Shown: in pieces, positions 27,919 to 32,436 of the stretch
How positions within the stretch are numbered: position 1 is the first letter of the stretch
Layout of the letters: every line of letters starts with the position of its first letter
From: a virus
Lineage: Duplodnaviria > Heunggongvirae > Uroviricota > Caudoviricetes
Reading direction: 5' to 3' (one strand)
Length of the DNA stretch: 36,154 nt
Virus record (IMG/VR): IMGVR_UViG_2568526086_000004
Location: 1-36,154 of that record
The notes under the pieces: generated by a model
Database searches by the model: none
What the model was told of the DNA's origin: nothing
Seen by the model: the letters and a program-made list of their open reading frames with translations, nothing else
Made by a program: the position numbers and the translations under genes

Positions 27919-30360
27919 TTAATACAGGTTCCGCCACTTATCATCTTCCTGCAAACGCTGGTTCCGATAGAAGATACGCAGGCCTGCTCCTGACGGAATA
28001 CTGCCGCCGCGAAGGAGTAAATCGACCTCTTTCTCGCTGCCATCAAATCCTCTGGATTTCAGTTCATAGACGAGCTGCTGTCGTTGATGGTCTGTAATTC
28101 GCTGTTTGTAGTCTCTACGCCGTTTCGGTTTCACCAGACGTAACCTTGCAGCCAATTCCCGGCGCTCCTTTTTGTTCATACTGTGCAGGTAATCGTGCAA
28201 CACCTTGTCATCCATGCGGGTAATGTCCGTTCTGGGGTCCCCATCAGCTGATTTATCTTTCTCCTGTTGGTTCAAATTTTCAGCAAGGGGACAGTTATTG
28301 CCACGAGTCCAAGGGGCGCAAGCGCCCTGGTCGGCTGCCGCCTCCTGAACGTCAACGGCCTTACGAACCATTTTCCACTTCACTGCATGAGTGCAGATCT
28401 TGCCCTCTGCAATGGGTGACCAGATGCCATAAATACGAATACCGTGATCGCCATAGGCGGTTGGCTCTTCGTTGATTTCATAAGCGGTTCTGATGAGGTG
28501 ATATTTGCGGGGAACCAGTACGCCGCCCTGCTTCATGATGTAGGTGGCAAAACAACCAGCATCAGCAGCAGCCAGAATGGCATCAAGACGCGGGTTATCC
28601 AGTACCGGCGCACCTGCTTTTTTGTCACCCTGTTGCCTTGCCGCCTGACCAGCCAGCAAGCGAAGTTCACGGTAAGCCTGACGTCCCGGAATACCAAAGA
28701 AGCGGAATTGCTGTACACGATGCAGAGACGCCCAGGCATTAACGTATTCAGCGTTATCACGCAGGGATTTACCCGTTTCCTTGCTGATCTCGCCAGCCAG
28801 ACCACGCCCGTCAATGTTCTTACTGATGTATTTCGCGATGTAGCTTGTCGGCGTTCCTTTGCGCGGGTTTATCAGCTCAGATTTAAAGCGTGGACCAGTG
28901 TTATTACCCAGTTCCTCGCGGTCTTCACGGATGGCAAACTTACGCAACAATGCAGTAATGGCGCGGCGGTCTTTTTTGCGCATGAAACACAACAGGTGCC
29001 AGTGAACTGTACCGTCATGATGCGGCTCAGCCACCCGCACGCCATACCAGCGCAACCCGGCTTTGTGCATCGCCTTACGAAATGCAGCAAACATGCCGAC
29101 CAGATAATCGCTGCTTTGTCTTACCGTCGCATTTGTCCAGGTTGGGTTTGGTCTGCCGTTATTGAGCGTAGAATGGAAACGTGACGGACAGGTAATGGTG
29201 TAGAAAACGGCGCAGTCACCGCGCATTTCCGCGATAAGCTCCAGACCTTTAACACAGGCCATCATCTCATTGCGGCGGTGCGCCGGGTTGCTGCTGCTGG
29301 CGTTTACCACATCTTCCATATCCAGCGTGTCGCCCTCTTCGTTCACCAGTTCATGAGAACGGAAAAACTCCAGTGACTTGCGGCGCTGCTCACGTTTATG
29401 CATCACGGCTTCATAGCTGACATAGGGAGATGCTTTTTTGCTGACCAGGCAGACAGCACGCAACTGCTCTTCCCGCCATTCGCAACGCATTTTCCATAAT
29501 TTCCGGTACCACCAGTCGGCGCACAACATACGCGCCAGCGAACCCGGAATGAGTTCATAGGGCACGGGTTTACGGCGGTTTCTTTTCCGACGGAGTTGCT
29601 CAAACGCAGGCGGGATGACATCCAGACGCAGGGTTTCCGCTGCCACCTTTTCCCATGTCTTGCGGATTTCTTCTGGCTTAACGTCATCGGTGGCATACAA
29701 ATCACCACAAGCTGCATCAAGGCACATGCTCATATGCGCAGCGACAAGGGTAGACAGGCGTTTCACCTGATCCTGACTCATTTCAGGCAGAATCAGCAGG
29801 CCGTCCAGCCCTACATGGCTTGCCATAAAACGAAAAGATGCAGATAGCTGGCTGTCGCGTACATGCTCCAGTCGTTCCAGACATGGCTTAATCGTCTCAC
29901 GTAAATAGCGGGAATAAGCCTTTGGCCTGCCCAGGCTGCTGAAGTATTCAATACGTTGCATCAGCGGCTTGCTGATATGGGAGGGCTGGGCGCTGACGTC
30001 TGCCAGAATGACCATGTCCGGGTTAAAACGCTGCTGCTCATGCGCCAACTTTGCCCGGCTAATGAGCTTATCCTGCTCCATTTCGCGCTGGACAGGATCA
30101 CGGGATTCATTAAAGAAATAACGCTCCCAGACCTGATCACTCAGTGCCTCGCGGCGCAGTTGTTCCTGCTCGTTATCGGTAGCGTACAGAGTGATCAGGT
30201 TTGAAAGCGCAGAAACCGGCGCAACTTCCGCCGGGTCCAGATAAGGGTTAATGGCTTTCTTAGGTAAATTCCACGAATAACCCCCGGCAGAATTCTCAAT
30301 GCTACCGGAAGTTACACTGACAAATGGATCGGCAAGACGGCCTGTGCTGATCTCTGTCAC
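27919..30360 (-). CDS. A: Replication initiation endonuclease gpA (rolling-circle initiator)
   Basis: 813-aa ORF containing the catalytic tyrosine region [12 protein letters not shown] and the His-hydrophobic motif (TVHWHLLCF) typical of P2 gpA-type initiators. Confidence 0.88.
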
Positions 30361-31367
30361 TCACAGACTCCTGCATATACACTGCTGCACACCGCTTTAT
30401 CATTCATGCCTGCCAGCAGGTCAAACTGCATACCGCCCCGAGTCGTTAAGGCCCAGTCCCGATAAGTTTCAATGCCATAAGCATCAACAGTTATGACTTC
30501 GATCCGTTTTTCAGCACGGCGCGGATCATGCGTGGATGGAAAGAACGTTGAATTGCCACGTCTTGAACATTCCGCAACCAGTCTTTCCCACTCAGCCACT
30601 CGGCGGATTTCTTCTGGCCAGCGTTGGAAAATCTCTCCAAGTTCTGACTTGCGAGCATGAATGCATGGCATACAACCGACACGACTGCATCCCTGCATAT
30701 AAAGGGGGTTAGGCTTAATGCCATGACGTTTGGCAATAGCAAACACATCCTCATGCAGCCAATTAAGGATCGGACGATAAACATGCAGCCCCAGAGTATT
30801 GTCTGCATCGTCCTCCCACTCAGGCAACAATGCACGTTCCGGTGATTCCTGCCCCCGGACTCCTTGCCAACTGATTACCTCATCGTATTCATCCAGAGCT
30901 GGATCGATTACCTGTGTACGTATTGGTTCATGTTTCAGTTCAAAAGTGCAGAAACGAGCTTTTGTTGAAGGGAAGCGACCTTTCCACATGCACAAATCAA
31001 GAAACGGAACGCCGGTTGGTTTAAGGATTTCCAGTGCCCGGTAAATACGTTCCTCAGCCTCATCTGTCGACATACCACATTCCTCAACGAGAGAAATGGG
31101 CCACTTTTCCGCAATGAATTTACGTTTCCCTTCTATCTGGCGTGTGAAATCCGCTTTGACGCGAATAATCTTGCCCAGCTTTGATTCCAGATAATCCAGA
31201 TATTCTATTGTCTGTGGATGTTCATGACCCGTATCGGCAAATACAGAAATATGCGGAACATCGTTTTCAATGGCTCTTAGCCATTGAGCGAGACTATCTT
31301 TGCCACCAGAAGTATTGATGACGTTAATGGTGCCTGAGGCAAAGCAACGCGGATCGATAGCATTCAT
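30357..31367 (-). CDS. PP-loop ATP-pyrophosphatase superfamily protein (PAPS-reductase-like), function unknown
   Basis: 336-aa ORF with the N-terminal PP-loop motif SGGKDS ([13 protein letters not shown]) and a C-terminal Cys cluster (CSRVGCMPC). Its start overlaps the dam stop and its stop overlaps the A start. Confidence 0.75.
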
Positions 31368-32212
31368 GCGCGTACCTCAACGGTACGGTCAGAGCCGCTG
31401 GCAAAATCGACACCAAACCACCCAGCTGATTTGGTGGCAATGATTTCTGTTGCAGATTTACTCTCGCCAGCTGACACGCCAATGCTGCGTTTTGCCTTGA
31501 TGTAGTGGTGAGTGAAATTGCGATACAGCGAACGGATCAGGGATGTGTCACTGTTAGAAACAATGACCGGATGTCCTTCTGATGACCGATGTTCAAGAAC
31601 GGATGCCAGGTGATACTGGTCATCTTCAGTGAAGCCGTCAGTGTGATAACCGGAAAACGTACCGTCATAAGGCGGATCGCAATACACAACATCCCCCGCG
31701 TGCAACATTGCCAGCGTTTCATCGAAGCTGGCGCAGATAAATGTTGCCCGCTGGGCTTTTTCTGCAAATGCACGAATTTCTTTTTCAGGGAAATACGGAT
31801 TTTTATAATTACCGTAGGGAATGTTGAAATGCCCGCTCTTGTTATAGCGACATAAACCACGGTAACCGTGACGATTGAGATACAGGAAATATACTGCTTT
31901 CATGAAATCAGTAATTTCAGTTGAGTAATTAAACTCCTGCCTTATGTTGTAATAAGCCATCTCCCTGTTTGCGTTCTCAAATAAAACTCTGGCGCGAGAT
32001 ATAAACGATTCACAATCAGCGGCAACCTTTTTATAGAGGTTGATTAAATCAGGATTAATATCCGCAACCAGATAGCTGGGGTAATCCGTCTCCATCATCA
32101 CTGCACAGGAACCCGCGAAAGGTTCAACCAGTCGCGGGCCAGCAGGAAGGTATTTTTTCAGTTCTGCCATAATGGCCGTTTTATTTCCCGCCCATTTCAG
32201 GATGGTGCTCAT
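31364..32212 (-). CDS. dam: DNA adenine methyltransferase (Dam-like, N6-adenine)
   Basis: Contains the DPPY catalytic motif ([10 protein letters not shown]) and an N-terminal SAM-binding region (ILKWAGNK). I chose the internal start [11 protein letters not shown]; the ORF track extends to 32272. Confidence 0.85.
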
Positions 32213-32436
32213 ACAGCACCTCCGTTGTAATGTTTGCCTTTCAGTTCTGCGATTTCCTGACAGGTAATGCAAAGCTGCACTCCCGGAATGGCGCGGCGTC
32301 GTGCTGGCGGAATTGGCGCTTCACATTCAATACAAAGCACGCGAGACACGCCCGGTGTTTTGGCACGGGCAGCACGAATATGGCGCTGGAGTTCTTCTTC
32401 AACGCGCTGCTGTACGAGATCCATTGCATCAGCCAT
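32209..32436 (-). CDS. TraR/DksA-family C4 zinc-finger protein
   Basis: 75-aa ORF with CIECEAPIP...CITCQE (Cys-x2-Cys ... Cys-x2-Cys). Its stop overlaps the dam start. Confidence 0.75.
   Translation of the reverse strand: MADAMDLVQQRVEEELQRHIRAARAKTPGVSRVLCIECEAPIPPARRRAIPGVQLCITCQEIAELKGKHYNGGAV

Follow-up and report, generated by a model that had tools for sequence, protein, structure and literature searches.

All four established systems that put phosphorothioate into DNA combine a protein carrying a phosphoadenosine phosphosulfate (PAPS) reductase-type domain with a dedicated NTPase, and they require partner genes; one such protein, BrxP, has an additional DUF4007 fusion (PMC12914056). 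The subject here is a phage gene from the same superfamily, which encodes a 336-residue PP-loop protein with the PAPS-reductase fold, a member of what is called below the Orf84 family. It lies on the minus strand at 30357-31367 of IMG/VR virus record IMGVR_UViG_2568526086_000004, positions 1 to 36,154, and this whole stretch of 36,154 nucleotides is referred to as the window. It contains a 186/Fels-2-type prophage of the P2 family (Peduoviridae), almost complete, from the chromosome of Escherichia coli. The evidence of its sequence argues against the PAPS reductase or cysH label for the protein and favours an enzyme that transfers sulfur with the use of ATP and is associated with DNA methyltransferases.

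The family is already represented in a model phage. By sequence comparison the window protein and phage 186 orf84 are orthologues (tblastn, 80.8% identity across residues 4-336), and relatives occur also in Yersinia phage P37 and in other Peduoviridae. The phage 186 record on orf84 (CP84; NP_052288) reads 'unknown function; not essential' and adds that translation to the end of orf84 is apparently needed for translation of the replication gene A. Thus the coupling into gene A inferred for the window is documented for the orthologue. In phage 186, orf84 is directly upstream of A and overlaps it (orf84 ends at 5002 and A starts at 4999), within an operon that runs, as in the window, from a DUF2732 gene and a DksA-like zinc-finger gene through intervening genes to A. 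The neighbours immediately upstream of orf84 differ, being an exonuclease-like gene (orf82) and a DUF5405 gene (orf83) with no Dam gene.

Only one experimental phenotype is known for a phage PAPS-type domain, and that is escape from phosphorothioate-based Dnd restriction. Sister phages that had received a two-gene block from a Vibrio crassostreae podovirus became able to plate on a Dnd host (Piel et al. 2022; bioRxiv 10.1101/2021.05.05.442762). The block comprises p0018 (phage 44E38.1), in which an N-terminal PAPS domain is fused to Dam, and a gene of unknown function; the PAPS domain was credited 'at least in part' because the sensitive sister phage already had a stand-alone methylase with 96% identity to the Dam domain (10.1101/2021.05.05.442762). 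As in the window, a PAPS-reductase-type domain accompanies an adenine methyltransferase, and the region is an early or anti-defence one. The protein p0018 differs in being a single 479-residue polypeptide, in having a Dam of PF05869 type by the paper's annotation where the window has D12 (PF02086), in its short PAPS domain (residues 4-175), and in that the phenotype was transferred along with the second gene. It was not recovered by tblastn of the phage collection with either the window protein or a short-type Vibrio-phage relative. Two apparent leads were discarded: a match in V. crassostreae phage 14E30.2 is not the fusion, this phage being a siphovirus with a stand-alone PAPS-like ORF (open reading frame), and JSS1_004, considered as a 'phage PAPS reductase anti-Dnd' protein, is an unrelated T7-type kinase. 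A 2026 survey finds PAPS reductases within Aca-regulated anti-defence operons and cites the Vibrio work (PMC13551039); other papers class phage PAPS reductases as sulfur-metabolism genes or leave their role open.

The window protein belongs to the PP-loop ATP pyrophosphatase superfamily, having an N-terminal SGGxDS on a Rossmann-like alpha/beta fold, and it matches PF01507 (E 1e-33, 117 bits), phrog_424 (E 2e-82) and phrog_15238 (E 2e-85). A HMMER search returned 2273 clusters (50% identity) at E <= 0.001, of which 342 reached E <= 1e-30. The gene is under strong purifying selection (dN/dS, the ratio of nonsynonymous to synonymous change, is ~0.05 in comparison with relatives whose proteins are 90-92% identical), and the ORF is intact in 148 of 148 fetched loci; for both reasons it is not a remnant, one of the outcomes that the initial annotation of this stretch had named as fatal to its proposal.

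Conservation was read from an alignment of 68 diverse homologues, 37-57% identical to the window protein, and from motif counts over the 148 loci. The ATP-pyrophosphatase signature SGGKDS (residues 20-25; 31293-31310, minus strand, as are all the protein's features) is invariant or nearly so in the alignment and present in 145 of 148 loci. Other columns of this kind are D45-T-G, E49, F139-C140, K145, G169, R171, E174, S175, N220-P-L-Y, R229-V-G-C232-x-P-C235 and, in the tail, C335-E336. The protein has ten Cys, and those conserved in the family are C140, C232, C235, (C327) and C335. Cys140, a candidate ligand of an iron-sulfur (Fe-S) cluster, sits in an FCTxELK motif (codon 30948-30950) and is invariant, as is K145 of that motif, with FC[ST] found in 148 of 148 loci. 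Cys232-x-x-Cys235 (GCMPC, 30663-30674) would contribute the other part of the putative Fe-S site; C232 is invariant, C235 is kept in at least 90% of homologues, and GCxPC appears in 147 of 148 loci. A flexible C-terminal tail (30360-30389) ends in Cys335-Glu336; C335 is invariant, E336 is retained in at least 90% of homologues, and 137 of 148 homologues end exactly in CE. The C-terminal Cys cluster of the initial annotation is more exactly two separate features, the GCxPC in the middle of the protein and a C-terminal tail of the form CxSxYGLCE.

The AlphaFold model of the protein is of high quality overall (predicted local distance difference test score, pLDDT, 93.5; predicted template modelling score, pTM, 0.91), with lower values in the tail (pLDDT 67-76). 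About 150 residues are specific to the family and have no counterpart in the reductases, namely residues 75-135, which form a helical insert, and residues 240-336. Many members of 360-415 residues (P0121, P0123, P0125, P0127, P0128 and others) carry a further insertion of ~40-60 residues between query residues ~98 and ~100, which falls inside that helical insert. A fold search of BFVD matched only other phage 'PAPS reductases' and QueC. Chain C of PDB 21fy ('PptA', 270 residues) matches the family profile at E 5e-6 over NPLY...GCxPC; it is absent from the top fold-search lists, and no paper describing it was found.

This pattern of residues would suit an active enzyme. Because the SGGKDS loop is canonical, the Orf84 family is taken to consist of active ATP pyrophosphatases, which would adenylate a substrate and then replace the adenylate with sulfur, by chemistry of the kind used by DndC, SspD, BrxP, TtuA and MnmA. 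Cys140 and Cys232-x-x-Cys235 are so placed that they could hold a three-Cys Fe-S cluster, as in adenosine phosphosulfate (APS) reductase. The sulfur might be supplied by this cluster, by a persulfide on the mobile terminal Cys335, or by both, and Cys335 could either carry or attack the sulfur. Action on phage DNA would serve as counter-defence, in parallel with DNA methylation rather than dependent on it. The enzyme may install a phosphorothioate-type sulfur mark, or it may interfere with the phosphorothioate-sensing defences of the host (Dnd, Ssp, BREX type 4). Such a DNA-directed sulfur-transfer role in counter-defence is the leading reading of the family, adopted tentatively and at something short of an even chance.

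The genomic setting of the family bears on this reading. The fetched loci were clustered at 85% PP-loop protein identity into 54 clusters, with neighbouring genes called crudely. A Pfam scan of 129 same-strand neighbours of at least 90 residues at positions -2, -1, +1 and +2 found gene A 19 times, D12 methyltransferases 13, DUF5405 10, C5 methyltransferases 6, N6_N4 methyltransferases 3 and a PF05869 Dam once. With the identical motif flag applied at all positions, 22 of 105 methyltransferase-sized ORFs within two genes were methyltransferase-like, against 3 of 118 lying three to six genes off (odds ratio 10, Fisher p = 1e-5). For the 35 clusters that lack a neighbouring ORF of gpA size, a few of which are truncated P2-type contigs, the counts were 12 of 66 and 1 of 88 (p = 2e-4); both p-values are optimistic, as the clusters lack phylogenetic independence. 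Chance would hardly produce such a fall with distance or such a variety of methyltransferases, which come from five families (D12, C5, N6_N4, Dam of PF05869 type and MT-A70).

The association extends to gene structure. In phiE125 and in Agrobacterium phage Rivra the methyltransferase and PP-loop genes have the same 4-nt overlap as in the window, and in Rivra the PP-loop gene is flanked by an MT-A70 methyltransferase and a phrog_757 methyltransferase. In P0257 (560 residues) a phrog_799 DNA methyltransferase domain (LDPGCGKG, NPPF) is fused to an Orf84-family domain that retains SGGKDS, FCTRELK, GCWPC and a terminal CE. This is the sole methyltransferase fusion: other long representatives (P0126, P0254, P0240 and others) have only PF01507 with unannotated extensions or inserts, and a 'DNA modification methylase' of a Methanoculleus virus found under a PAPS match is a fusion of ParB-N to PAPS. 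The initial annotation had proposed a DNA-modification or anti-restriction module. Methyltransferase proximity, the fusion within the family and the Vibrio precedent uphold the suggestion in part; as an obligate module it is not supported, most clusters having no methyltransferase within two genes of the family member.

Two further kinds of neighbour recur. ParB-N proteins are encoded beside PAPS-like genes in phiE125 (L085, 4019-4840), Riah (L086, 40-885), L148 (5221-6888) and Methanoculleus virus L4768 (L154, 1242-2486), and ParB-N is fused to the PAPS domain in the archaeal virus L154 and to an N6_N4 methyltransferase in L148, which suggests a recurrent trio of ParB-N, methyltransferase and PP-loop genes in phage early regions. 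DUF5405 is the third most common neighbour family (10 of 129), and in Vibrio phage 1.047.O (L152) a homologue of the 186 DUF5405 protein CP83 is encoded at 344-637, ~2 kb upstream of a short-type PAPS-like gene; this hints at DUF5405 as a second recurrent partner of the PP-loop gene.

The same neighbourhoods can also be read as those of unrelated cargo. On this account, which is possible though not probable, the Dam and PP-loop genes merely share a slot, and the PP-loop enzyme modifies tRNA or a nucleotide-like small molecule, as do enzymes such as TtuA, TtcA, MnmA or those like QueC. Each of the two genes is common without the other, an adjacent methyltransferase is missing from most clusters, no DNA-binding domain is recognisable in the 336 residues, and the remaining neighbours are a mixture that includes DUF5405, DUF4406, RusA, dUTPase and exonuclease genes. 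Unrelated cargo does not readily account for the sharp drop of methyltransferase enrichment with distance, for the occurrence of five unrelated methyltransferase families in unrelated phages, for the fusion of a family member to a DNA methyltransferase domain, or for ParB-N domains both as neighbours and as fusion partners. The sole experiment on a phage PAPS domain likewise indicates DNA-directed defence.

Comparison with the phosphorothioation enzymes brings out both the appeal and the difficulty of DNA-directed sulfur transfer. The best PADLOC match of the window protein is SspD (80 bits, E 5e-23), followed by BrxP (42 bits) and DndC (24 bits), these profiles having no curated cut-offs. With SspD, BrxP and DndC the Orf84 protein has in common the superfamily and the logic of an ATP-pyrophosphatase PP-loop (PMC12914056); unlike them it is encoded alone and has its own helical insert and CE-terminated tail.

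Several points weigh against this reading. The foremost is that the phage encodes no dedicated NTPase, which makes autonomous phosphorothioation doubtful. Neither the window operon nor the neighbour survey yielded an NTPase (DndD/SspC/BrxC), a nickase or DNA-binding subunit, or a cysteine desulfurase partner; SspB/SspC and BrxC/Z/L partners were equally missing from both, and no ABC-type ATPase or DndE-like gene was found in the operon or among the 129 neighbours in the 54 clusters. The SspD match spans profile positions 71-202 of 277, about half of the profile, and that to BrxP 212-334 of 779, and the protein scores 17.1 on the DndC model TIGR03183 (cut-off 290.4) and at most 24 bits on the PADLOC DndC models. 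The Fe-S cluster is a prediction from the amino acid sequence, and the family has no biochemical or genetic function on record, the 186 entry giving only 'not essential'. The p0018 PAPS domain is too distant from the Orf84 family for the Vibrio precedent to be orthology, so that it stands as an analogy. Finally, beyond the statistical caveat already given, in ~60% of clusters no methyltransferase gene lies within two genes, and the link is thus facultative. A stronger form of the proposal, in which the family would be a single-polypeptide DNA sulfur-modification enzyme relying on ATP, an Fe-S cluster and the terminal Cys, or a plug-in to host Dnd or Ssp machinery, and would work without NTPase and DNA-binding subunits, sometimes with a methyltransferase as targeting partner, is unlikely.

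The label that the protein carries in databases implies a different role, that of a genuine APS or PAPS reductase acting as an auxiliary metabolic gene that raises the supply of sulfite and cysteine during phage growth. There are grounds for it, in the PF01507 score of 117 bits, in a CxxC matching in position the Fe-S CxxC of APS reductase, and in a Cys on a flexible C-terminal tail that resembles the catalytic tail Cys of CysH. CysH-type enzymes have their catalytic Cys on a C-terminal tail, within an ECGLH motif, and a degenerate P-loop that is not of the ATP type. APS reductases have a four-Cys [4Fe-4S] site made up of a Cys-Cys pair and a CxxC. The GCMPC of the window protein aligns with the GCAPC Fe-S CxxC of Mycobacterium tuberculosis APS reductase (7lhr), where cluster-free PAPS reductases have GD, but only a single Cys (F139-C140) stands at the position of the Cys-Cys pair. 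Identity to the assimilatory APS reductases of Pseudomonas aeruginosa (2goy) and M. tuberculosis (7lhr) is ~20%, and the Orf84 protein has the ATP-type SGGKDS in place of the sulfonucleotide-binding variant of APS reductase.

Classification with hidden Markov models, which the initial annotation had proposed as a check, assigned the protein to the Orf84 family and placed it below every curated cut-off for CysH, APS reductase and DndC, with no QueC match. Scores on the CysH models were 63 for PRK02090 (NF002537; cut-off 154), 36 for TIGR00434 (cut-off 165) and 36 for TIGR02057 (cut-off 254), and the APS reductase model TIGR02055 gave 47.8 (cut-off 235.3); matches to the sulfonucleotide-reductase models are confined to residues ~143-251, and those to the CysH models to residues ~155-250. 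No Pfam or NCBIfam QueC model matched the window protein, and some relatives show sub-threshold N-terminal matches to QueC limited to the PP-loop region. Neither hallmark of CysH is present: SGGKDS occupies the position at which PAPS reductases carry SSFGIQA, and the protein ends in ...YAGVCE, the family tail being ...GLCE instead of ECGLH. Moreover, the ~150 family-specific residues have no counterpart in a reductase, E. coli carries its own cysH, and the neighbouring genes concern DNA metabolism and not sulfur metabolism. A reductase function is accordingly doubtful.

The methyltransferase gene of the window (31364-32212, minus strand) encodes a Dam-family, D12-class N6-adenine DNA methyltransferase of 282 residues (PF02086, E 6e-76). 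It belongs to the family TIGR00571 'dam' (321, cut-off 114.85), with a DPPY motif at residues 179-182 (31667-31678, minus strand) and an S-adenosylmethionine-binding motif EPFAGSC at residues 30-36. The ORF finder placed the start at TTG 32272; the biological start is ATG 32212, given the MSTILKWAG N-terminus, a length equal to that of the Dam of phage Cartapus and a preceding GGAGG. The score on the host-Dam equivalog NF008152 is 288, below the cut-off of 441, and among PADLOC profiles 'orphan methyltransferase' matches best. Over its whole length the protein can be aligned with E. coli Dam (2g1p, E 7e-73), and it keeps the LKWAG and hairpin GY.GLCRYN...NPYFP DNA-contact segments, and because these segments are conserved relative to E. 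coli Dam it is likely an orphan enzyme of GATC specificity. The further supposition of the initial annotation, that the locus makes a modification beyond ordinary adenine methylation, finds no support in the present analysis.

Relationships between phages indicate how the two genes came together. The window Dam is 92-99% identical to orphan Dams of the Fels-2, RE2010 and Cartapus type. In Cartapus, RE2010, KP12 and many Klebsiella prophages (96% DNA identity, in a two-piece alignment) Dam abuts gene A and there is no PP-loop gene, whereas in 186 and in Yersinia phage P37 the PP-loop gene occurs without Dam. Phage 186 and the window allele are 72% identical in DNA, with only 31311-30356 matching. 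Comparison of the window with Cartapus by blastn showed homology at 32800-31437 (96.9%) and 30264-29900 (95.9%) and none between. The exchanged segment (30265-31436), 1172 bp that replace 147 bp of Cartapus, thus reaches from ~24 codons before the end of Dam, across the PP-loop gene, to ~32 codons into A. As the recombination endpoints lie inside the flanking genes, the Dam and A proteins are chimeric relative to those of Cartapus-type phages, the last ~24 codons of Dam having been exchanged along with the PP-loop cassette.

Surveys of genomes agree with this picture. Among 5426 complete E. coli genomes, the Dam region was found in 1259 and Dam together with this PP-loop allele in 24; 14 further E. 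coli genomes have a 73%-identical 186-type allele beside gene A without Dam. In a set of 80 IMG/VR loci encoding close homologues, a Dam lies directly upstream in ~35, including lineages only 37-43% identical to the window Dam, and in the others a zinc-finger, DUF5405 or different gene. Dam and the PP-loop gene are, then, two separately mobile accessory cassettes in a permissive slot upstream of A, and whichever gene is last in the slot is coupled to A. Since each occurs without the other, neither requires the other. The arrangement in the window is a known and annotated one, a Fels-2-type Dam cassette plus a 186-type orf84 cassette in one early operon. The description of the two genes as fused in an operon holds to the extent that they are coupled in the same operon; they are not an obligate pair, as the Cartapus-type phages, 186 and P37 demonstrate.

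These facts decide largely against an obligate two-step pathway, in which Dam would provide recognition and base flipping at GATC and the PP-loop enzyme would add a group, producing a hypermodified adenine or backbone. Such a pathway could explain the 4-nt coupling in the window, phiE125 and Rivra, the fusion proteins P0257 and p0018 of the Vibrio phage, and the presence of an adjoining Dam in 24 of 24 E. coli prophages with this PP-loop allele (at least 95% identity). Nevertheless, genes of orf84 type lack an adjacent methyltransferase in 186, in P37 and in most clusters, and the partner methyltransferases differ in chemistry and specificity (N6-A, N4/N6 and C5) in a way unfit for one shared reaction. 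That the window Dam is so nearly identical to Dams of phages with no PP-loop gene argues against co-adaptation of the pair. The pathway is very improbable.

At the distal end of the early (replication) operon, five minus-strand genes form one translationally coupled chain, in the order DUF2732, zinc finger, Dam, PP-loop and A. The most upstream member encodes a DUF2732 protein of 79 residues (32436-32675; PF10809, E 2e-27; phrog_128), which has a counterpart in phage 186, the gene order being common to 186 and Cartapus; its gene and the start of the next overlap by 1 nt. The second encodes a TraR/DksA-type C4 zinc finger of 75 residues (32209-32436; PF01258, E 2e-11; TIGR02419, 66.3 against a cut-off of 59.7; phrog_54), whose motifs CIEC (32323-32334, minus strand) and CITC (32260-32271, minus strand) together make up the C4 site. 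The zinc-finger gene occurs whether or not a locus has Dam or the PP-loop gene, and it belongs to the conserved backbone of 186/P2-type early operons. The chain ends in gene A (27919-30360), which encodes a replication initiator and nickase of 813 residues (PF05840, E 2e-127).

The sequence at the junctions reads gtATGAgc for zinc finger and Dam, gcATGAat for Dam and PP-loop and tGTGAca for PP-loop and A (30357-30360), each a 4-nt overlap with a purine-rich, Shine-Dalgarno-like run upstream. The three genes overlapping stop to start and the continuation of the chain into A, as given by the initial annotation, were thus borne out at the same coordinates on the minus strand, and its domain calls (TraR/DksA C4 zinc finger, DPPY methyltransferase and SGGKDS PP-loop protein of 336 residues) were confirmed by Pfam, NCBIfam and PHROG. 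It is hardly credible that the PP-loop ORF serves chiefly to bring ribosomes to gene A, as a translated leader whose protein has little function of its own: the apparent need in 186 for translation to the end of orf84, the conserved GTGA overlap in the window and the same coupled position of Dam in phages with no PP-loop gene fit such a role, but dN/dS is 0.05, catalytic-type motifs are kept down to 37% identity and in phages that have no gene A, and a 1-kb leader is unnecessary where Dam or a 90-residue DUF5405 gene occupies the position elsewhere.

The rest of the window is that of a resident prophage. The left flank is marked by a host Asp-Al_Ex/TrkA_C transporter gene (935-2620), and on the right are a 186-type immunity region with genes for CII/CP76 (33250-33765) and the CI repressor (34133-34708) and an integrase ORF that runs from 35024 to 36154 and continues past the right end of the window, so that the right attachment site is outside it. 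Complete E. coli chromosomes contain the region at up to 99.3% identity, and PGAP labels its genes there as DUF2732, TraR/DksA regulator, DNA adenine methylase, 'phosphoadenosine phosphosulfate reductase domain-containing protein' and replication endonuclease. Four consecutive ORFs of low GC (0.33-0.40) and 171, 215, 231 and 243 residues are on the minus strand at 24372-27273, between a DinI/Tum-like gene (27333-27638) and the late genes, at a frequent site of defence cargo in the P2 family; considered as a possible source of a restriction system for Dam or the PP-loop enzyme to serve, they gave no Pfam or PADLOC match, and they may be an uncharacterised cargo or defence module. A moron-like ORF of 250 residues (15126-15878, plus strand; GC 0.32) lies on the opposite strand within a tail-gene block of 55-59% GC; no Pfam model matched it, and PADLOC gave only a non-significant DRT-like match (E 0.002).

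Members of the Orf84 family are routinely labelled 'PAPS reductase' or 'cysH' and are counted in virome studies as auxiliary genes of sulfur metabolism. If the counter-defence reading is right, many of these 'metabolic' phage annotations are wrong, and the family would represent a new route of evasion from phosphorothioate-based or other restriction. The question is directly testable, because phage 186 is a classic, genetically tractable phage in which orf84 is dispensable. Were its stronger form true, with a single-polypeptide DNA sulfur-modification enzyme, temperate phages, model phage 186 included, would be found to carry a widespread and hitherto unrecognised class of anti-restriction enzyme.

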